Source: an uncultured Spirochaetota bacterium (GTDB taxonomy: Bacteria > Spirochaetota > Spirochaetia > SZUA-6 > Fen-1364). Taken from it: a DNA stretch of 64,000 nt. The stretch's first letter is position 1, and each line of letters opens with the position of its first letter. This document shows, piece after piece, positions 9,046 through 22,857 of this stretch. The notes under the pieces are model-generated. The model saw only the letters and a list, made by a program, of their open reading frames with translations. It was not told where the DNA came from and ran no database searches. The DNA lies in NCBI GenBank assembly GCA_963745235.1, contig CAVUXE010000015.1, positions 32,001-96,000 of the forward strand. Reading direction: 5' to 3'. The translations under genes were made by a program, and so were the position numbers.

Positions 9046-11166
9046 TCACCGTGCCCCCGCCTTCGAGTCGAGGCTCGCGGCCTCCGTTTGCGCCGGTACT
9101 GACACGGACGGCCCGGTCACGCCCTCCCCGTCCGTCTTGATCCTGAACTGCCCGACCAGGCTCTGCAGGTCCTGGGCCCACCGGGACTGCTCTCCCGTGG
9201 CGCTTGACATCTCCTGGGCAGAGGAGGCAGCCGCCTGGGTCAGCTCGTTCACGTGCTCGACCGCCCGCGAAACCTGTCTCGCGTTGGCCGTCTGTTCCTC
9301 CGCGGCGGTCGAGATACTCTGACTCATCTCACTGACCTCCCGCAGCGCTCCTGCCAGCTCGCGAATCGCGACGATCTGCCTCGACATCGAGCCCGACAGC
9401 TCCCCGATCATCTGTTGCACCTTCTGCGACCCCGCTTTGATCTGCTCCATGGCGCCCTGCGAGCCGTGGGCCACCTGTACTCCCTGGGTGACGTTCTTCA
9501 CGCTTTCCCTTATCAGCCCTTCGATCTCTTTCGTGGAAGCGGCGGATCGGTCGGCAAGCTTGCTCACCTCCTGGGCCACCACGGCGAACCCCCGCCCGTG
9601 CTCCCCGGCTCGGGCCGCCTCAATGGAGGCGTTGAGAGCCAGCAGGTTCGTCTGGTCCGCGATATCGGAGATCACGTTCACTATCCCCCCGATCTTCTCC
9701 GAGCTATCGGCGATCCGCGTAATGCCCGCGGCCACCTCGCTGACCGCGGCCGCGCCTTCCTGTGACTTCTCCACGGACTGGTTGGCGAGGGTCGAGATCT
9801 CTCCCAGGCTGCGCGAAACCTCCTCGATTGCTCTCTGCACCTGCTCCATGGAAGCCCCGCCCTTGTTGACCGAAGTCACCTGCTTCTGCACGTGCTCTCT
9901 GACCTGGTCGACGCTGGCGGCGAGCTCCTCCACGGACGCCGAGGTCTGCTCCAGGGTGGAGGCCTCGCTCTGCGCCCCTTCCGCCAGGGACTGCGCGTTT
10001 GCGGAAATCTGCTCACTCGAAGCCGCCACCCGGTGAGCACTCTCCTGCACGGTGGCTACCATGGAGGAGAGGCGTGAGGACATGGCGTTCAGCGCTTCGC
10101 CCAGTCTCCCCACCTCATCGCGCCTGCTGATCGCCAGCCTCTGGGTAAAGTCCCCTGAGGCGATGGCCTGGGCGAATGCGACGCTCCGGGCCAGGGAGAC
10201 GGTGATGGAGCGGGAGAACAGAAGGTAGATGAAGAAAGCGACGATCACCGCCGCCACGCTGATCACGAGGAAAAGGTCGCGCAGGCTCGTGGCGGTGAGG
10301 GTATAGGTATCGTCGGCTGCCTCCATGGACAGTGCGACGCTCCAGCCGACGCTCGTCGCCGGCGCAAAACCGGCTTTCATCGGGATCCCCTCGAAGACAT
10401 AAGAGGCAACTCCGCTCTCGCCGGCAATCATCTCCTTGGCGAGCTCCCTGGTTCCGCTGGTCTGAAGGAGGTTCAGCTTGAGGATGTACTGCGGCTTCGG
10501 GTGCGCGATGACTGTGCCCGTGGTATCGACCACGTACGCGTAGCCCGTGGTTCCGATCTTTTCGTTCTTGATGACGTCCGTGAGGAAGCTGATGTTGATG
10601 AGTGTCGCATAGACCCCCACAACGGTGTCGGTGTCGGGATCGCGGATGGGAGAAGCAATGGGGACAACGGGCAGGTTGGTGATCTTGCTGAAGAAAACCT
10701 GCCCGATGTACGGCGCCCCGCTCATCGCTTTTGAGAAATACTCCGTGTCCGCAATCGACACGCCTACCCATCTGGCCATGGAGGAGGCGAAAACGTTGCC
10801 GTCCCTGCCCGCGACGATTGCGGCCTCGTACGTCCAGTGTATCTGAGTGTTCTTGTCGAAGGGGGAGAGCTTCTTCCCGACTGCCCCGACGATGTCGCCT
10901 GACTTCGTCACTCCCTTGGTGTCCACGCTCCTGGCCGCCTCGATGATGTCGAAATCGTTGGCCATGCTCAGCGAGAACCTTCTCTCTTCCACAAATACGT
11001 TGTCGATGATCCGGGCGATCTCCCCGGACCTGGCGATCATCTGATCGCCGCCCAGCCGTGAAAGAGCTGCACTGGACCGGGTGATTGCCAGGAAGGCAAG
11101 AAGCGCGAGGGGAACGACCATGAGGACCGTGCCCACTGCCACGAGCTTGAAGCCGATGCGTTTCAT
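9046..11166 (-). CDS. Methyl-accepting chemotaxis protein (TM-dCache-TM-HAMP-signalling)
   Basis: Two TM segments, GYAYVVD..G..IAHP Cache motif, [30 protein letters not shown] hairpin tip. Confidence 0.95.
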
Positions 11167-11313
11167 TCAGCCGCCTCCATTCCCCCTGAGGCAGGGCGCC
11201 GCTCCGTCAAGAGGAATTGCGCTGCGGCGGGGCGGTTCCCGCCCATTTCTCATTGTGCTGATTTCTCCCGATCCCCGCAAGTCCTGCTCGTCCATTCGTG
11301 GTCCGACACGATG

Positions 11314-13455
11314 TCAATCGAGGAGGTCCGGCGCCTCCAGCGCTCCGCCCTTTTGGTTCCCATTGCTCCCGATCTTGAACTGTGCAGTCAGATCCCTCAG
11401 GCCTTGCGCCATGGTAGTCAACTGCTCCGTTGCCGACGACATCTCCTCAGCCGCGGACGCCGAGCCTTGCGTTATTTCGTTCACTGCCTCGATGGCCTGC
11501 GACACCTGCTTGGCATTTGTCGTCTGTTCTTCCGTCGAAGCGGAAATGCTCTGGCTCATCTCGCTGACGTTCTCCAGCGCCTTGGCCAGCTCCTTGATGG
11601 CCGCCACCTGCGCCGCCATGGACTCCGAAACCTTGGCGATCATCTCATTCACCTGCTGGGAAGCCCCGCGGATCTCTTCCATGGCCTCTTCTGAGCTGCG
11701 GGAGGTCTGGACGCCCGCGGTGACGTTCTTGATGCTCTCCTTGATCAAAGATTCGATTTCCTTTGTCGACGAGGAGCTTCGATCCGCAAGCTTGCTCACT
11801 TCGTCAGCGACCACGGCGAACCCTCTCCCGTGCTCGCCGGCCCGGGCAGCCTCGATGGAGGCGTTCAGCGCCAGGAGGTTGGTCTGGTCGGCAATGTCGG
11901 AGATCACGTTCACGATCCCGCCGATCTTTTCCGAGCTTGCGGCAATGGTGTTGATGCCGGCAACTACGGACTGAACAGCCCGGGCTCCCGCCACGGCGCT
12001 GTCAACCGATTTGCGGGCAAGGGCGGAAATGTCCTCCAGGCTCCTCGAGACTACCTCGATCGTGTCGAGGGCCTGGGTCATGGAGCTCGTTCCCTGCTCC
12101 GCGGCCGCGGCCTGGGATTGAGCGTGCTCCGCAACGAGGTCCACCGACGCCGTCAGCTCCTCAACAGATGCGCTGGTCTCCTCGAGGCTGGAGGCCTGGC
12201 TCTGCGCGCCTTCGGAAAGCTTCTGCGCGCTGCCCGAGATCTGCTCGCTGGATGCGGCCAGCTGCTCCGCGTTTTCCTGGATGGTCCCGACCATTTCCGA
12301 AAGCTTCTTTGACATGCTGTTGAGGGCCTTGGCAAGCGCTCCGACCTCATCTCGCTGGCTCACGTCAAGCTGATGGGTGAAATCTCCCGCCGCCACTGTT
12401 TGCGCGAAAGCAACCCCCTTGGCAAGCGGAACGGTGATGGACCGGGCAAACAACAGGTACAGGACAAAGGCGACCAGGAGCGCAATCACGACGATCACGA
12501 ATATGAGGTTCCTGACGTCGTTTGCCGCCGCGAGGTACTCGCTTTCGGGTACGATAAGGGTCACGCTCCAACCGGTGCTTTTCACCGGCGCAAACCCCGC
12601 CGTCTTTGCGACGCCCTTGAAGACGAAGGATGCGACGCCTGTTTTGCCGCTCACCATCTCCTTCCCGTAGTCCTTCATTCCTTCGGTTTCAAGGACGTTC
12701 ATCTTCATGATGAGGTCGGCGTTCTGATGAGCGATGGTCATGCCTTTTCCATCCACAACCGCCGCATAGCCGGTTCTGCCGACCTTCTCTCCGGCGACGA
12801 TGCCACCGAGGAAGTCGATTCGAAGCATCATGGTGAAAACACCCACGACTCTTCCGTCAGACGTGATCGGCACCGCGACAGGCGTGATTGGCTGGCCGGT
12901 GACCTTGCTGATGACCACGGACCCGATGTTGGCCTCTCCCGTCATCGCTTTCTTGAAATACTCCCTCTCGTGGGCATCCACTCCCATGGACGCCGGAGTA
13001 GCGGCGACAAACACAACACCGTTGGCATCCATTATGTTGACAGCTTCGTACGAGCCGCCAAGCTGCTGGATATCCCTGAATGGGGCCAGATGATCAAATG
13101 CCACCGCAATCGCGTCCGGTACCGGGCTCACCGTCTTTGCTTTGGCGGCAGAAGGGCTGCTCTTCACCGCCTCCGCTCCCGCCCCGTTGGCCGAGCGGTT
13201 GCGCTGCACTGCCGCCGCCACGATGGCCGGGTTGTGCGCAAGACTGACGCCAAGCTTCAACTCTTCCGTGTAGATGCCATCGATAATCCCGGCGATTTCC
13301 TGGGACCGGCTGACAAGCTGCTGATCGCTCAGCTCCTTGAGCCCGGCGCCCGCCCGCTGTACAGCGAGTATCCCGACTGCAATCAACGGGACCGCTATGA
13401 TAATCGTCCCTACAAGGATCAGCTTTGGTCCAATTCTCAAGTTCTTCAGCATCAT
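11314..13455 (-). CDS. Methyl-accepting chemotaxis protein (dCache), tandem paralogue
   Basis: Same architecture and tip motif; start at [11 protein letters not shown]. Confidence 0.95.
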
Positions 13456-13487
13456 CGTGCCCCTTCGCAGAATAGATGGTTGTCTGT

Positions 13488-13503
13488 AGCAAGAAGCGTG
13501 CCG
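13488..13503 (-). promoter_or_regulatory. Sigma54 (-24/-12) promoter of the MCP operon
   Basis: Minus strand CGGCACGCTTCTTGCT = GG-N10-GC, close to TGGCACG-N4-TTGC, about 33 bp upstream of the MCP start. Confidence 0.7.
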
Positions 13504-13901
13504 GCGACAGAAACCGCGACAGGTTGAGCAGAGATTCGGCCGCAAATGCTTTGATTGAATAGAATTAACTTCACGAAAAGTCAATCGACTATAATGAATG
13601 GTCTACTTACACGCCCACATGCTGGCGGAGAGGGTGTTCCAGTGTTCCACCTGTCCATGGAGCTTGGAACAGGCGAACCCTCCGATCATCAGGCCGCAGC
13701 GAAAACGAGGATTGTCGAAAGGCACGTATCGTGATATAAGTCTCTCCAGTCGGTTTCGCAGGAAATTCCTTTTATTCCTGGCGCCTCATTCCAATCAGCA
13801 ATCGAAGTCGGCAGAATCACAAGAAGAGCAAGGTTGGTCTTACCGTATCCGGTCGGCACGACGCCCTGAATCTGCAATATGTGGCAAGCGAGGTGGGTTC
13901 C

Positions 13902-15863
13902 ATGCGCACGCATTCTCTCCCCCCGGTAATCACAGTCAGCGAAGAAAAGTGCGTGAACTGTCACGCCTGCATAGCCGTGTGCCCGGTGAAATACTGCAAC
14001 GACGGAAGCGGCAGCACGATCCGGCTGAATCATGACCTCTGCATAGGCTGCGGACGTTGCCTAACGGCGTGTACCCATGAAGCGCGCCAGTACGTGGACG
14101 ACTTCGAGGCATTCATGAACGCGGTAAGGAAAAAACAACATGTTATCGCCGTGGTAGCTCCGGCGGTGGCGGCAAACTTTCCCGGGCGCTTCCACAACTT
14201 GATTGGTTGGCTCAAAAGCATCGGAGTCGAGGCTGCATTCGACGTCAGCTTTGGAGCGGAGTTGACGGTCCAGTCCTACTTGGAGCATATCAAGAAAAAC
14301 AAACCGCGAACCGTCGTCGCACAGCCTTGCCCCGCCATTGTCACGTACATCCAGGTCCATCGCCCGGAGCTCCTTCCCTACCTGGCGCCGGCCCACAGTC
14401 CCATGGCGCACACCATACAAATGGTCAAGACCCACTATCCGCAGTTCCGAGATCACAAGGTGGCGGTCATCTCTCCCTGCATAGCCAAGAGACGCGAGTT
14501 CGTCGAGACCGGGCTCGGTGACTATAACGTCACCTTTCTTTCCCTGGCGCGGTACTTGAAAGATCAGCGCATCGACCTGGACAGGATCCAGGAGTCCGAT
14601 TTCGATTCGCCGCTCGCCGAGCGTGCCGTTCTTTTCTCAACTCCGGGAGGTCTGATGCGCACAGCCGAGCGCTGGAATCCTGGGCTGAGGGCACAAACCA
14701 GGAAAATCGAGGGTCCTGAACAGATCTACAGCTACCTGGACATCCTCCCGCGCATGATTAAGGAGGGGATCGCGCCCCTTCTCGTGGATTGTCTCAGCTG
14801 CACGCACGGGTGCAATGGCGGCACTGGTGCTCCCGCCAAAGGCGCCGGTCCGGACGAGATTGAGCGCTGGGTGGAAGCGCGCAGCGGAGAAGCGCGAAAG
14901 CGAACCAGCAAGCGTCGGATTGAGAAGGCCATAGCGCGCCACTGGCGCGCTGGGTTGTACGACAGGTCCTACGAGGACTTGCGTGCGCTCAACACCATCC
15001 GGCAGCCCAACGAATTGGAGCTGCAGAGGGTTTACGAATCCATGCACAAGCGGTCTCAGCAGGACTTCTATGATTGCAACTCGTGCGGATACAAGAGCTG
15101 CAAGGCAATGGCCGTCGCTGTGTTCAACAAGGCAAACAAGCCTGAGAACTGCCACCACTACTACAACGGCACCCTCCTGGCCACCGAAGTGCAGCGCACC
15201 ACGGAGGAAGCCGAGCGGGCCAGGGAAGCCTTCGAAGAGGCAGAACGCATGCGACGGCACATCGAGGAGAGTTATGAAAAAAGCCTCGCCCAGGCTCAGA
15301 CGATCAATCACTCCATGGAGCAAATAGGCCGGAATAACGAGGAGGTCACCGGTGTAGCGACCGAGTTGGCCGGCTTCTTTCAGTCGCTCAGCGAGAGCCT
15401 GTCCAACGTTGCTGCGAGGATTGGCGAATCCGCGATCTTGACTGAAAAGTTCGAGCCGATAGTGGAGTCGATCACCGACATCTCGGACCGGACCAACCTC
15501 CTGGCGTTGAATGCCGCAATCGAAGCGGCGCGCGCCGGGGAGCACGGGAGAGGGTTCGCGGTGGTCGCCGCGGAAGTAAATAAGCTGGCGGAGAACTCAA
15601 AATCTGAAATTGGCAAGGTGCTGCCCTATTCTCAGGAGCTGAAGCGCGCCTTTGTCGAAATCAGCCGTGCGATGGGTGACCTGAGCAGACGGTTCGGTCA
15701 AACAAATGAGGCAGTCCACAAGATGACCCGTTCGGCCATGGAAATTGTGTCCGCGACGTCCAAAGTGGGCGAAGAAGTTTCTCTCCTCATTTCCCACGAT
15801 GAATCTGTCCCAGCGGGGTGCAAAGAAACTGGGCCCAAAAGCACGGGGCCCAAAGAAAATTGA
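13902..15863 (+). CDS. Sensory [FeFe]-hydrogenase-like protein fused to a cytoplasmic MCP signalling domain (group C2-like)
   Basis: Two 4Fe-4S motifs ([23 protein letters not shown]); H-cluster motifs [27 protein letters not shown]; [10 protein letters not shown] FeS site; C-terminal [23 protein letters not shown]; no TM segment. Confidence 0.85.
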
Positions 15864-16012
15864 CAAATTGCCCGAACTATGTCATTCTGGGGTTCCTCAA
15901 TACTTCTCGTGATTGGAAATGTAACTCTCTTGTGGCAGACTTTGCTCGCTCATAGTCCAGCAGTGTGATTCATGCCTGTGCGGTTCGAGAACTGTTTCAA
16001 CAAGGAGGCACC

Positions 16013-17466
16013 ATGAAACCTTTGGAGCTTTCCTCGCGCGCTGGCCGCCCCGCCCCTCACAAACTGAGACGATTCGCAAGATCCAAGGGGCTCGTCATCG
16101 CGGTTGCCGTGGTGAGCGTGACGTGGTGGCTTTCGCCTGCCAGCGTGAACGCCCTTTCCAGCTTCGCGCGGCAGACGGGCCTGTCCTGCGACACCTGTCA
16201 TTGGTCTTTTCCAGAGCTGAAGCCGACCGGACGCGAGTTCAAGCTGAATGGCTACACCCTCACCGCAGAGAAGAACCTGACAGCCACGGGCACCGCCAAG
16301 ACTGCGGAGCTTTCGCTCCCGCAGTTTGTCCCTCTGTCCGCCAGTCTCTTGACGTCGTTGACCTATACGCGGCTGAGCAAGCCCGGCGCAGCAGGATCCA
16401 AGCGTTGAGGTTCCGCAGGGGCTGAACATCTGGTTGGCTGGACAAATCCTCCCCAACTTCGGAGAAGCTGTCCAGATTACCTACACTGCCGCCGACGACC
16501 ACTTCAGCTTCGACAGCAGTGACGTTCGCTACGTATTCCAGACAACTCTCTTTGGCGAAGACCTGGTTCTTGGGATTGATTCCAACAACAATCCGACCTT
16601 TGAGGACGTGTGGAACAGCGTCCCTGCCTGGGGTTTCCCGTTCGCCTCGGCCGACTCGGCTGGTTTTGCGCCGGCGGTCACAACGCTCATTGATGGGCCC
16701 CTGGCCATCCAGGTGGTTGGCGGCGGTCTCTATGCCCTGTTTGCCGATCATCTGTATGTCCTGGCGGAGGTTTATCGTTCACAGCACCTGGGTCAGGCGC
16801 AGCCCGGAAACGGGTGTTCCTTCGCCGCCGGCCTACCAGCCAATCAACATCCAGTACGTTGCGCCGTACTGGCGTGTGGCCTGGCAGCAGGAAGTGGGAA
16901 AGAACAACTATTTCGAGATCGGTACCTACGGAATCTACGTCAGCTCCACTCCCAACTCGACCGGCGGGGCCACGGACAGCTATCTGGATCTGGCCGCGGA
17001 CCTAACCTATGAGCTGACGCTGGGCAACGGTGACGTGATCAGCGTGCACAGCACATTCATCTATGAGACGAGTGATCTCGACGCAAGCTCGGCGTTGGCA
17101 CCGGCGCAGTCAAACCCGGGCATTCATACGCTGGAGACTTGGAGGCTCGACGCCAACTATCATTTCGGCAACAAGTTCACTTTCACCGCCGGACCGTTCA
17201 TGACGTGGGGTACAAGCGATTCGCATCCTTTACCCTGCGTGACTCCAGGCAACTGGAGACACCACCGCCAGCTTTGCCGATGGCAGCCCCGAACTAATCT
17301 GGGCTACATCGCGCAGGCCGCCTTCTGGCCGGGGCAGAACTTCCAGATCGCCCTGCAGTACAGAGGGTTCATCACCTACAATGGCGCGAGCTCGAACTAC
17401 GACGGGAACGGAAGGAACGCATCCGACAACAACACCATTTACGCTTTCATCTGGATCAACTACTGA
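16013..17466 (+). CDS. cyc2: Cyc2-like monoheme cytochrome c-porin fusion (frameshifts near 16382, 16806 and about 17222-17292)
   Basis: SD AAGGAGG, signal peptide ending VNA, then SSFARQTGLSCDTCHWSFPELKPTGREFKLNGY (Cyc2 signature; CxxCH at 16187-16201). Barrel region has NNNPTFEDVWNSVPAWGFP and APYWRVAWQ, ending GRNASDNNTIYAFIWINY. Joined from ORFs 15965..16408, 16434..17012 and 16519..17466. Confidence 0.8.
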
Positions 17467-17507: not shown

Positions 17508-18302
17508 TCACCCGTAGCTGTGGAGACCTGAAAGCAGGAAGTTCACGCCGAAAAACGTGAACAGGGTGAAAGCGAAGCCGACAATGGCCAGCACGGCGGA
17601 GATCTTCCCCCGCAACCGTCTGACCAGTCGAGTGTGGAGATAGGCTGTGTAGACCAGCCAGGTAATGAGGGCCCAGGTCTCTTTCGGATCCCAGCTCCAC
17701 CACTGCCCCCACGCCACTTCCGCCCAGATGGCGCCGAAAACGAGAGCGCCGGCGGTGAATATCGGGTACCCTATCGCGATTGACGTGTAGGTGATCCTGT
17801 CTGCCTCTCCCTTCCTTTCCTCATCCCGCGCTGCCAGGGAGACGATTGCTGCAACAAGGCTCACGACGAAGAACGCCTCTCCGATGAAAGCAAGGGTCAC
17901 GTGGAGGACGAGCCAGAGCGACTGGAGCGCCGGAATGGGAGGCTGGATACCGCGGGGAGCGAGCGGCGAAGAGGAGATCAGGAGCAGCGCAAGAGCGAAA
18001 ACAGTTGCGCCCGGCAGGATGAAACGCATCACATCTGACTTCACAACGCTGTGCAGGACGAATATCACGGCGCAGACCACCGCGGAGAAGAACACGAGCG
18101 ACTCGTAGGTGTTGGTGACAGCGGGGAAGCTGATCCTGAGGCTGCGGTCAACTGTGACGGCGAACAGAAGGAGGGAGGCAGCGAGAAGCATCCAGCGGGA
18201 CAGCGGGTCCGGAGTCCCACCCCTGCGAATGAGAAAGATGATCTGCAGGACCGCGGCTGCGGCAATGAGGACGAGGGCTGCCGTTGCGAAAGCTTGCGCC
18301 AT
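17508..18302 (-). CDS. ccsA: Cytochrome c biogenesis protein CcsA/ResC (System II)
   Basis: WWD domain GAIWAEVAWGQWWSWDPKETWALITW, conserved His residues, C-terminal GVNFLLSGLHSY. Confidence 0.95.
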   Translation of the reverse strand: MAQAFATAALVLIAAAAVLQIIFLIRRGGTPDPLSRWMLLAASLLLFAVTVDRSLRISFPAVTNTYESLVFFSAVVCAVIFVLHSVVKSDVMRFILPGATVFALALLLISSSPLAPRGIQPPIPALQSLWLVLHVTLAFIGEAFFVVSLVAAIVSLAARDEERKGEADRITYTSIAIGYPIFTAGALVFGAIWAEVAWGQWWSWDPKETWALITWLVYTAYLHTRLVRRLRGKISAVLAIVGFAFTLFTFFGVNFLLSGLHSYG

Positions 18303-18331: not shown

Positions 18332-19285
18332 TCAGGTCTTTTCCCCGCTCCCCTTCTGGACAAAAGTCAGCGTGAGGCCCAGCGCCAGGAAGGCGACTCC
18401 GACGATGACTGTGGTGAAACCGGGGTCGCTCACCGCCCGCAGCCCTGTGGCCAGCTGTTGCGTAATGCGCACCAGCGTGTACTGCCCGAGTGACTCGGTG
18501 ACAGCGAGCTTTCGCGTCGAGACAAGGAGATTGCCCCGATACTGCATCAGCAGCGCCTCCGTGTCGCCCCCTTCGTCCACCACGTCAGCCAGGTACCAGA
18601 CGGAATCGGCGTCCCGGAAGCCCTCCCCGATCCGGGCTGTCGTCTCGGCTCCGGCCGTATCGCGAAAGAGGAATGTCGACTGGTCTTCCCACGTTGCCTG
18701 GTAGACCGAGACGCCTTTCAGTCTCAGGGGATGGTTCACCCTTATGGGAAATGCCGTACTCTCCAGGATTCCGTCCCGCAGCACGTCGACGGTTGAAATC
18801 CAGGCCCGGGGAGACCCGTTCTGGTACTTGAGGTATTCAAAAGAGACGAGCCTGATCGAGTAGTGAGGGGCCACGTCGACTTCCTGGCCCTGGGCCATCA
18901 GGAAGTCTTTCTCACGACGTCCGAGTGCCGTGAGAAGCCCTCCGGCGATGAGCACCAGGAGCGCGATATGAACGATATCCGGCCCAAACCTTCTCTGAGC
19001 CTTCATTCGCCTGCGACGCACGACGCGGTCCACGGCGCAGACCCCGAGGTTCAACGCGAATACGGCTACGGGAACGAGAAAGAGCGCTGAGGAAAAGTAC
19101 CGGTTGAAACCGAGAGCCGTGATCAAGGCGTGGAGAGCGGGCGAATACCTGGCGTGGTAGAATGCCGTCTCTCTGCCCTGCGGCACGAGGGTGGAAAGCA
19201 CCGACAGCGCCGTGATCAGGAGAATCAGCACGATGGCCAGCCGCACGGACTTCAAGAATCGATACAATGCCTGCACTCGACCCAT
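18332..19285 (-). CDS. resB: Cytochrome c biogenesis protein ResB/Ccs1
   Basis: SVRLAIVL...STLVPQ, His in TM3 (DIVHIALL), IRVNHPL and DPG motifs; directly upstream of ccsA. Confidence 0.85.
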   Translation of the reverse strand: MGRVQALYRFLKSVRLAIVLILLITALSVLSTLVPQGRETAFYHARYSPALHALITALGFNRYFSSALFLVPVAVFALNLGVCAVDRVVRRRRMKAQRRFGPDIVHIALLVLIAGGLLTALGRREKDFLMAQGQEVDVAPHYSIRLVSFEYLKYQNGSPRAWISTVDVLRDGILESTAFPIRVNHPLRLKGVSVYQATWEDQSTFLFRDTAGAETTARIGEGFRDADSVWYLADVVDEGGDTEALLMQYRGNLLVSTRKLAVTESLGQYTLVRITQQLATGLRAVSDPGFTTVIVGVAFLALGLTLTFVQKGSGEKT

Positions 19286-21016: not shown

Positions 21017-22857
21017 CCGTCACACCACCGTGCGTACGGGTCCGTACACGGCGGTTCGGCAAGATTGAACGTTCACGTAGCAAGCGACGGGAGTCCGAGG
21101 GAGTCGAAGAAAGCATTCGGCAGCGCGATGGCCAGGGCTTTGCTATTGCTCAGTCGCCATGGGCCGTGCGCACTCCCCGCCGTCTTCGCGGCGAGGTCTT
21201 TGCCGATTCCCCGTTCCTCAGTTCTTTGAAACGTACCCTTCCGCGTTTCCACTGCTTCCACAGGAAGCAGCGCAGACGTCTTCGGGTCCAACCTGTCCAA
21301 GTCCCTGAGTATGCTGGGGGTCTCGCAGAATCCGAAGTAACCCCGCCACCCTATCATATAGCGGCGAAGCTCTCCGATCATCTGCTCGATACTGATCCCG
21401 CGTGTGCGCCATGTCAGTTCCCGAATCCGCTCCTTGAATCGTTCGATGGCCTTAGGCGCGATGCGCCTCCTCACCGTCTTCTCCGCTCGTGAAGCTGAAT
21501 CCAAGGAACTTCCGATCCTTTGGCCGTGCCACTGCGCTCTTCGATTTGTTTACCTTAAGCTTGAGTTTTCTTGTGAGGAAGTCCTTTCACGCCTTCCATC
21601 ACCCGCTGACCCGCACGCTCGCTTTTCACGTAGATATTGCAATCATCTGCGTAGCGAACGAAGCGGTGCCCGCGTCGCTCCAGCTCTCGGTCCAACTCGT
21701 CAAGCAGCAGATTGGAAAGAAGCGGCGAAAGAGGTCCACCTTGCGGCGTTCCTTCATCCGTCGGTCCCACAAGTCCGTTTTCCATCACTCCCGAGTTCAG
21801 GAACGATCGAATCAGCTTTAGCATCCGCTTGTCGCTAATCCTTCGGGCTACGCGGCTCATCAGCACGTCATGGTTCACGCGGTCAAAGAACTTCTCCAGG
21901 TCAAGGTCCACGACCCAGTCGTAACCTTGCTGGATATATTCCTGCGCCTTCTCCACCGCCTGATGTGCCGATCGCCCTGGCCTGAACCCGTAGCTGTACT
22001 CACTGAATGTGGGGTCCCACCGCTCTTGCAGTACCTGCAGCACCGCCTGCTGGACGAATCGATCCACCACCGTCGGAATGCCGAGCTTTCTCGTGCCTCC
22101 TCCCGATTTCGGTATCTCCACCCGTCTCACAGGCTGCGGCCGATAGGTGCCTGACAAAAGCTGCTCCTTTCAATCGCGGCCAATTCTCCCGCAGGTACTC
22201 CGGCAATTCCTTGACGGTCATCCCGTCGATGCCTGCCGCTCCCGCGTTGGCTTTCACGCGTCTCAGCGCTTCCTTCAAGTTCTCCTTCTCGCATGCCTCC
22301 TCGATCAGCTTGTCCGTGTTCGCCTGGCTTTCCGTGCTGAGTTTCACCGCTGTGGATTCGATCCCTTCCTCGGGTGCCCTGAGGGCTTCACCCCTTCCCT
22401 CACCCGCGAAGGCCAGCTCATGCTGGATTTTCTGTCGCCTGTCCACTTCGAGTCGCTCCCTGTACTCGCCTCTCCTGCCGTTCGGGCCTTCGGGTCACCG
22501 ACCCTACTATGCCCTCTGCTGACTTCTGGCAGCCGATCAGAGATTCTCACGAATCCCTCAGTCCCTACTCGGGGACACCTGCCAGACCTCCTGGGGTAAG
22601 CTCACCCGCTTTCAGCGCACAACCGCTGGATTTACAACCCGAGCCCTTGATGGATATGGGCTTGTCGGTCATATGCCCGCTCGCCCGACTCGGTATGCCT
22701 CGTATCCAGTTTCTGTTCGTCGGCTCGCGCCTTTGCTCCACGCTTCTTTCGGACACGCTCTCGCGAGATAAGTGCCCTTGCGTTTCGCTACGCCTTCACC
22801 TCCATCAGGTTGGCGAGGGGACTTTCACCCCAAAGCTGGTGAACATGCCCAGCACAC
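21017..22857 (-). mobile_element. Group II intron, bacterial class C (IIC); domain VI missing
   Basis: 5' end GTGTGCTGGGCATG at 22857; short domain V ACCGCCGTGTACGGACCCGTACGCACGGTGGT (21024-21055) with CGC triad; RT ORF inside; hairpin plus T-run just upstream of the 5' end. Confidence 0.9.
21073..22446 (-). CDS. ltrA: Group II intron reverse transcriptase/maturase, no endonuclease domain (several frameshifts)
   Basis: GAAGIDGM, RKLGIPTVVDR, YGFRPGRSAHQA, DLEKFFD, GTPQGGPLSPLLSN, RYADD, GWRGYF across ORFs 22000..22446, 21555..22157 and 21073..21504. Confidence 0.9.

Follow-up and report, generated by a model that had tools for sequence, protein, structure and literature searches.

A gene that is split over three open reading frames (ORFs) in the assembly of an uncultured spirochaete encodes what is, judged by its sequence motifs and modeled fold, a Cyc2-like fused cytochrome-porin, with all of the features listed for Cyc2 by Keffer et al. 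(2021) except a single proline. In the available text of that paper (PMC8406198) these features are a signal peptide, one CXXCH, an AXPXFAR[Q/K][T/Y] motif, a PXL motif, a length of at least 365 aa and an OprO/P-like 16-strand barrel. The product is very probably an outer-membrane monoheme redox protein. The role that we favor, with a probability of roughly 0.4, is the inward uptake of electrons from extracellular Fe(II), the protein acting as an accessory conduit to an oxidase and providing supplementary energy to a heterotroph.

The Split Gene and Its Surroundings

The window, which is the whole 64,000-nucleotide stretch of DNA analyzed, belongs to contig C15 of the source genome (G000, 86% complete). 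The gene occupies positions 16013-17466 on the plus strand as ORFs of 131 aa (from an ATG at 16013), 192 aa and 315 aa, which together encode a signal-peptide-like stretch, an SSFARQT motif, a single CXXCH, PEL, a GREFKLNGY stretch and then beta-rich sequence ending in ...WINY at 17466. Upon re-reading of the window, the motif, the coordinates and the division into three ORFs proved to be as given in a preliminary description of this DNA. The features are listed below, where P0156 is an intact public protein of the same species, G006 is another genome of the genus, and X1, X4, and X14 are metagenomic runs with near-identical contigs.

15864..16012, plus strand: upstream leader (TTGACA at 15860; RNA-library contig start at 15906)
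16013..16390, plus strand: piece 1 of the Cyc2-like gene, aa 1-126, with signal peptide, SSFARQT, CXXCH (codons 16187-16201), PEL motif and first barrel strand; identical to P0156 aa 1-126 (alignment; model)
16390..16391, plus strand: frameshift 1, one extra base, most likely an assembly error; base missing in X1, X4, and X14 contigs, gap against G006
16392..16805, plus strand: piece 2, aa 127-264, barrel strands and conserved NNNPT..D.W loop; identical to P0156 aa 127-264
16803..16806, plus strand: frameshift 2, one extra base, most likely an assembly error; base missing in X1 and X4 contigs, gap against G006
16804..17223, plus strand: piece 3, aa 264-403, barrel strands, invariant Tyr/Arg and Asp; identical to P0156 aa 264-395 and 397-403
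17222..17293, plus strand: variable, probably extracellular loop carrying about five single-base indels that sum to +3; its allele differs from that of P0156 (DNA alignment to G006; frame map)
17302..17466, plus strand: C-terminal strands, last residue Tyr (outer-membrane beta-signal type), stop at 17466 (translation; model)
17508..18302, minus strand: ccsA (System II cytochrome c synthase), convergent with the cyc2-like gene (PF01578, E 4e-44)
18332..19285, minus strand: resB/ccsB, partner of CcsA (PF05140, E 8e-36)

Motifs and Predicted Fold

Pfam returned no family for any of the three pieces, NCBIfam returned none for the pieces or for P0156 (the G006 protein gave a sub-threshold PorV match only), and a PDB sequence search gave no real match; in the ESM Atlas only unnamed "cytochrome c" clusters were found, with Porin_O_P on 20% of one neighbor cluster. 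The protein similarity is not due to chance, since 5363 of 8000 scored candidates match the full-length ortholog at E<=0.001, and 640 cluster representatives match the 3' piece by itself. The signal peptide noted earlier is borne out by inspection, with a basic n-region, a hydrophobic helix and VNA before the conserved mature start; cleavage is predicted, by eye and from the model, after ...VNA at aa 47, with a low-confidence helix at residues 24-39. Across 131 sequences reaching down to 31% identity, C12, C15, and H16 of the CXXCH are invariant, and the motifs around the heme site and several Asp/Tyr residues of the barrel vary little or not at all. The PXL motif is present four residues after the CXXCH (CXXCH-WSF-PEL).

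The AXPXFAR[Q/K][T/Y] consensus is matched at 6 of its 7 fixed positions, with Ser in place of Pro. This replacement had already been remarked upon in the preliminary description and is clade-wide: Ser, Ala or Thr stands at the Pro position in 15 of the 89 loci parsed and in 93 of 181 proteins (the latter biased to close kin), and the Pro-less motif is common to the whole spirochaete clade and to some Terriglobia, which argues that the change is not decay. Furthermore, the protein is 44-50% identical, over its full length, to proteins with the exact motif. Because of the Ser we file it as Cyc2-like rather than as a strict-motif member, and the failure of the strict motif at Pro counts against Fe(II) uptake. 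The database filter of Keffer et al., whose reference tree holds 1,593 sequences, required PXFAR according to the available text (PMC8406198), so that the Pro-less clade may be under-represented in that tree. As to length, intact P0156 (481 aa) and the orthologs (465-484 aa) exceed the 365-aa minimum, which none of the three ORFs of this assembly reaches.

AlphaFold2 modeled the mature G006 ortholog (mean pLDDT 94.3) as a small helical heme module with 16 long strands, and P0156 with the same architecture (mean pLDDT 89.1). The preliminary description had spoken of barrel-like sequence with an aromatic end and had proposed a structure prediction that should yield a barrel with a heme plug; both models agree with this, the last residue being Tyr. 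Among the Foldseek matches listed, OprO and OprP had the best query TM-scores (0.51-0.52), and in VIA 16-strand porins came out on top (Z 17.5-21.5; OprP Z 20.6, rmsd 3.9, 324 aligned); OprO and OprP are the structural templates given for Cyc2 in the available text of PMC8406198. That the protein is chiefly a porin for anions or solutes, with a plug gated by the heme and no net electron transfer, is quite improbable, for although its fold resembles general and phosphate porins and the family is widespread in heterotrophs, the conservation of the CXXCH, the heme-flanking motifs and the barrel Asp/Tyr residues speaks against this, as do the characterized members, all of which are redox proteins in the portions available of PMC8406198 and PMC13741234. 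Two invariant residues, Tyr238 and Asp282, and the conserved Asp120/Asp123 (mature numbering) are placed along the chain much as Y262/D308 and D137/D138 are in Acidithiobacillus ferrooxidans Cyc2; judged by these offsets they may correspond to the metal sites of that protein, in line with Fe(II) uptake.

Origin of the Frameshifts

Both ORF breaks are most likely assembly errors in a gene that would be intact in the living organism, because an intact same-species protein exists, near-identical contigs lack the extra bases and the assembly is prone to indels. Alignment with the G006 ortholog (83% DNA identity) shows one surplus base in the window near 16391 and another near 16804, and ORF 3 conceals the indel cluster at 17222-17293, whose compensated indels put about 25 residues of the 315-aa ORF off-frame. 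P0156 is identical to the window translation over residues 1-395, across both ORF breaks; its cluster comprises 6 proteins, three of them full length (P0156, P0270, and P0271, each intact at 481 aa). Four runs were compared (X1, X3, X4, and X14), with X1, X3, and X4 among the four best-matching runs, which are soil and peat metagenomes; runs X15-X20, with small shares, were left out. The extra base at ~16390 was missing from near-identical contigs in 3 of the 4 runs (X1, X4, X14) and that at ~16803 in 2 of the 4 (X1, X4), while X3 had no row at either site. Contigs of X1 skip 17219-17302, so the reads are silent either way on the indel cluster.

As a control for assembly quality, 246 ORFs were sampled, corresponding to ~0.42 of the 4.5 Mb of G006; 36 of 145 well-aligned ORFs had a frame-breaking gap relative to G006, some of which may be G006's own, and a looser count gave 49 of 146 genes frameshifted. 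The assembly mean was 0.31 frame-breaking events per kb, 38 of 52 events were net +1, and other genes of contig C15 carry 3 and 6 such events. That the gene is a genuine pseudogene in the source strain, a concern raised in the preliminary description, is very improbable: the ~7 indels in 1,454 bp lie above the assembly mean, the flanking 4 kb has no indel relative to the contigs compared and reads neither confirm nor contradict the five indels at 17222-17293, but there is not one amino-acid change over 395 codons relative to P0156, near-identical contigs lack the first extra base in three studies and the second in two, and the insertion bias and event counts are those of the assembly and of its other C15 genes. 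The gene is hidden by frameshifts, as had been claimed, in this assembly, but intact copies are public (P0156, G001, G006, G008, and G018). The family is undercounted by indel-rich assemblies and by strict PXFAR filters.

The loop at 17222-17293 lies between the last barrel strands, and here same-species alleles differ (P0156 type versus G006/P0154 type), which suggests recombination or diversifying selection on a surface loop. The indel cluster may plausibly reflect a consensus over two loop alleles.

Host, Distribution and Relatives

The preliminary description had proposed a probable spirochaete host and had called for a check of contig taxonomy, and this assignment stands. The contig is a genuine spirochaete contig because the closest loci are Spirochaetia or Spirochaetota records and 23 genes of C15 match G006 at 76-86% DNA identity; contamination or mis-binning was considered and ruled out by these 23 genes together with synteny with ccsA/resB in G006. 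A 131-sequence profile detected a cyc2-like gene in 5 of 21 genomes of the genus (the source, G001, G006, G008, and G018); in the 92 genomes of the order it detected no further barrel-type copy. With the 3' piece as query, 4 of the 20 other genus genomes yielded an intact orthologous frame of 475-508 codons, and 20 genomes of more distant relatives yielded none.

Four extra matches in the order and one in G383 were dropped from these counts as non-barrel multiheme proteins, as was a match in G170 that has no CXXCH. The multiheme proteins (L159-L162, L127), present in G383 and in 4 of the 10 genomes of genus g175, have no barrel; their Cyc2-like N-terminal monoheme module is joined instead to a membrane domain, a domain resembling cytochrome b5 and a multiheme domain (HAO-like by eye). 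The earlier claim that the N-terminal motif defines Cyc2 therefore did not hold, a similar module being fused to non-barrel multiheme proteins in another genus of the order.

The other 77 kept loci (from 517 confirmed) comprise one alphaproteobacterial MAG at 55% identity, 73 Acidobacteriota at 44-50%, two Verrucomicrobiota and one Saccharimonadales; the Terriglobia/Acidobacteriota homologues, annotated "cytochrome C", keep this 44-50% identity over the whole mature protein. Homologues at 27-36% were found on 15 plasmid records, including those of Ralstonia, Caballeronia, Paraburkholderia, Acidiphilium, and Methylocystis. In a FastTree phylogeny of 114 rows (L129, L145, and L147 were missed by the motif parser and left out), the five spirochaete-genus rows and 16 unnamed metagenome proteins form one clade (SH 97), which sits among Acidobacteriota clades yet separate from them and is distinct from the plasmid homologues; this tree points to no nameable donor.

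Cyc2-type outer-membrane cytochromes now extend to Spirochaetota. A distant homologue with a PXFAR[K/R]Y motif, which we take to be the cluster 3 type, was found in 8 of 400 other Spirochaetota genomes, none of the eight belonging to the class of the source genome; five of the eight homologues are full length and three are cut by contig ends. Because these homologues have only weak N-terminal similarity to the cyc2-like gene (E 1e-12 to 1e-16, profile A1) and are set apart by a long branch, they probably represent a separate acquisition, and given their occurrence in other classes the phylum seems to have gained Cyc2-type genes at least twice. In family f30 (6 of 11 genomes; L120-L126) the PXFAR[K/R]Y-type genes lie directly 3' of a pentaheme c554-like cytochrome gene.

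For the spirochaete protein itself the preliminary description had expected cluster 3, but cluster 2 appears about twice as likely, on account of its FARQT-type motif and its Burkholderiales/Acidiphilium relatives. The parts available of the literature place A. ferrooxidans Cyc2 in cluster 2 (PMC7029218) and link it to homologues in Burkholderiales, Hyphomicrobiales, and Acidiphilium (Li et al., PMC10654088), and the passage available of Garber et al. (PMC8446621) is ambiguous on cluster assignment. Compared by description, A. ferrooxidans Cyc2 (UniProt B7JAQ7, rus operon) shares with the spirochaete protein the signal peptide, the single CXXCH with His16 in mature numbering and the 16-strand OprO/OprP-like barrel, at 485 aa versus 481 aa, whereas the spirochaete has no cyc1-cup-cox-rus operon, a heterotrophic host and a replaced motif Pro. 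Cyc2PV-1 of Mariprofundus ferrooxydans and the Gallionellaceae Cyc2 proteins (cluster 1) share the fused architecture and the PXL motif (PMC8406198, available text); cluster 1 consists mostly of known autotrophic neutrophilic iron oxidizers, none of which is among the named relatives of the spirochaete protein. Cyt572 of Leptospirillum and cluster 3 Cyc2 likewise have the same architecture, but the cluster 3 type differs by the weak N-terminal similarity and long branch described above.

A literature search found no paper linking cyc2 to a spirochaete, although the labeled tree of Keffer et al. and supplements of MAG surveys could already list some. The portions available of PMC12687941, PMC8921683, PMC10494364, and PMC13647500 contain no such link, and that of PMC8357290 lists two Spirochaetota MAGs as lacking Fe(II) oxidation. 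The suggestion that this lineage was not known for the trait is thus upheld in that no report of a spirochaete Cyc2 was found, but loses weight in that homologues are common in heterotrophs not known as iron oxidizers, for which reason a new host lineage was to be expected. The gene is a further member of a known, widely transferred family in a new host, by itself a modest result, and P0156 and the G006 ortholog offer intact, testable representatives of a large Acidobacteriota-associated Cyc2 group.

Genomic Neighborhood and Expression

In the source genome the gene is flanked by chemoreceptors and by ccsA/resB, this ccsA being the only copy found there (1 match). G006 has the same convergent ccsA/resB arrangement and G001 a similar cytochrome-maturation cluster, while G008 and G018 have unrelated gene contexts. 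The adjoining heme maturation genes in three carriers favor Fe(II) uptake; the patchy occurrence of the gene within the genus (5 of 21) and its variable contexts weigh against it, as does the absence of partner genes. In G000, G006, G008, and G018 the genes next to it include no c-type cytochrome, cupredoxin or oxidase, unlike the plasmid homologues, where a c-type cytochrome is annotated next door in 5 of the 7 loci examined (the other 2 having no annotation). Nor is the rus-type co-location of cyc1, cupredoxin and cox found, cox being on contig C84 and the cupredoxin ~112 kb away.

A promoter scan upstream of the gene gave no site over threshold and nothing above chance, and the upstream regions show loose conservation only. 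The matching runs come from wetland, peat and soil, and one peat RNA library contains four near-identical pieces over 15906-16961, spanning the leader and the 5' two thirds of the gene, as well as one piece on the ccsA 3' end. These pieces are a weak hint of transcription of the cyc2-like gene in peat and, with the soil and peat origin of the best-matching runs, fit Fe(II) uptake. No RNA cover was seen over the upstream chemoreceptor or resB in one contig-only run, a result that carries no weight.

The chemoreceptor gene (window 13881-15863, plus strand) ends 149 bp upstream on the same strand, and its sensor is an Fe-only-hydrogenase-like Fe-S domain, which might serve H2 or redox taxis; a further two MCP genes, in divergent orientation, occupy 9046-13584. 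This neighbor bears on a protective or signaling role, in which the protein would oxidize Fe(II) at the surface against Fenton chemistry, or would sense redox state and report to chemotaxis. We consider such a role unlikely. It would suit a stand-alone gene with no electron-transfer operon next to an Fe-S sensor chemoreceptor, and the available text of Garber et al. (PMC8446621) describes the function of cyc2 in Acidobacteria and Ralstonia as unclear, with detoxification as an alternative for non-oxidizers. However, only 3 of the 21 genus genomes have the Fe-S sensor domain at E<=1e-40, the 4 other cyc2 carriers not being among them, the RNA pieces begin within the intergenic leader, and detoxification would need the same electron sink as Fe(II) uptake. 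A chemoreceptor-cyc2 unit was considered and rejected, the pairing not being conserved.

Additional elements were observed at these loci. A group II intron reverse transcriptase/maturase extends over several ORFs in the window (21073-22446, minus strand). In G006 (L008:4184-6472) the cyc2-like gene is closely preceded by an integrase and phage-like genes, and a tRNA-like stretch lies beyond resB, hinting at mobile-element traffic at this site. In G001 (L010:1-4120) the gene is accompanied by a triheme c7-like cytochrome, a membrane monoheme cytochrome, ccsA/resB and a radical SAM protein, and in G008 (L011:2744-8032) it comes after a cluster for a Hox-type NAD-reducing hydrogenase and a divergent gene for a secreted DOMON-domain protein.

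Respiratory Chain and Direction of Electron Flow

The genus is oxygen-respiring, with a COX1-family match in 20 of 21 genomes, bd oxidase in 21 of 21 and CcsA in 18 of 21. The cox operon of the source genome (G000:C84:50412-54443, L143) encodes CuA ligands in CoxB (subunit II) and a YSHP motif in subunit I, which presumably marks an A2-type oxidase. At its head is a gene in which DUF2231, a four-helix membrane domain, is fused to a monoheme cytochrome c; this gene is strongly matched in 20 of the 21 genus genomes, with a weak match in G018, and may be an undescribed quinol-to-oxidase link. The genome also encodes complex I, an NO reductase-like COX1 homologue and one plastocyanin-like lipoprotein. 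A short path from Cyc2 via cytochrome c and the oxidase to O2 is available, without genetic linkage, and this downstream sink, together with the lipoprotein, is in keeping with Fe(II) uptake. In the parts available of PMC8406198, PMC7029218, and PMC13741234, functionally characterized Cyc2 proteins of every cluster oxidize Fe(II), which further favors this role.

Several features of the host count against Fe(II) uptake. Neither an NrfD/ACIII match nor a canonical bc1 was seen in the 86% complete source genome, and of the carbon-fixation markers looked for, acetyl-CoA synthase was not found and the sole RuBisCO match is a 298-aa RuBisCO-like ORF in a sugar cluster. A split cytochrome b (L141:1348-2974, G000:C83) consists of a 219-aa N-terminal half, matched in 15 of 21 genus genomes, and a 320-aa partner with no Pfam match, and has no adjacent Rieske gene. 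The cupredoxin does not track the cyc2-like gene (3 of 5 carriers, 7 of 16 non-carriers), leaving it unsupported as a dedicated partner. In addition, the close homologues are mostly those of Acidobacteriota and the distant ones those of Ralstonia, Caballeronia, Paraburkholderia, Methylocystis, and Acidiphilium, the last four of which are not, to our knowledge, Fe(II) oxidizers.

Acidiphilium is an Fe(III) reducer, and its homologues are among the points in favor of outward flow under anoxia, whereby electrons from fermentation or respiration would leave the quinone pool through the DUF2231-cytochrome c or the split cytochrome b and the heme-porin to dissolved Fe(III) or humic quinones, possibly in a bidirectional system. 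The Hox-type hydrogenase cluster beside the G008 copy and the wetland, peat and soil origin of the matching runs would agree with this, as would the A. ferrooxidans chain, described as reversible and including Cyc2 in the available text of Jiang et al. (bioRxiv 10.1101/2021.03.22.436458). Outward flow is nonetheless doubtful, since no multiheme cytochrome was found in the source genome, each of the 65 CXXCH-bearing ORFs listed under a codon-bias filter having a single motif, and the high potentials measured for Cyc2 (208 mV and 560 mV; available parts of PMC8406198 and PMC13741234) favor uptake.

Under Fe(II) uptake, the Cyc2-type protein would be exported by Sec, receive heme c at its CXXCH from the adjacent CcsA/ResB, and form a 16-strand barrel in the outer membrane with the heme module facing the periplasm, an architecture drawn from the model and homology and a presumed localization. 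Outside the cell, in wetland water that is acidic and rich in organic matter, a dissolved reductant, most plausibly Fe(II), would donate electrons to it one at a time, both donor and direction being our supposition, and the electrons would pass to the CuA cytochrome c oxidase and O2, probably with the membrane-anchored DUF2231-cytochrome c or the blue-copper lipoprotein as carrier. For a sugar-using, non-autotrophic, O2-respiring spirochaete this would mean extra energy at oxic-anoxic boundaries and not lithoautotrophy, and it points to wetland spirochaetes that possess a complete aerobic chain as participants in peat iron cycling that may have been overlooked. We regard as rather doubtful the broader proposition that about a quarter of the species of this soil and peat Spirochaetia genus gain energy from extracellular Fe(II) through a Pro-less Cyc2, the DUF2231-cytochrome c and the A2-type oxidase, with no ACIII or canonical bc1. 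If true, it would provide the first iron-oxidizing or reversibly electro-active spirochaete, active in peat, and a Pro-less Cyc2 clade that would escape strict motif filters.

Among the other CXXCH-bearing proteins of the source genome is an adenylate cyclase with a CXXCH-bearing periplasmic sensor (G000:C8:15318-17353), located beside a small monoheme lipoprotein that is P460-like by eye.
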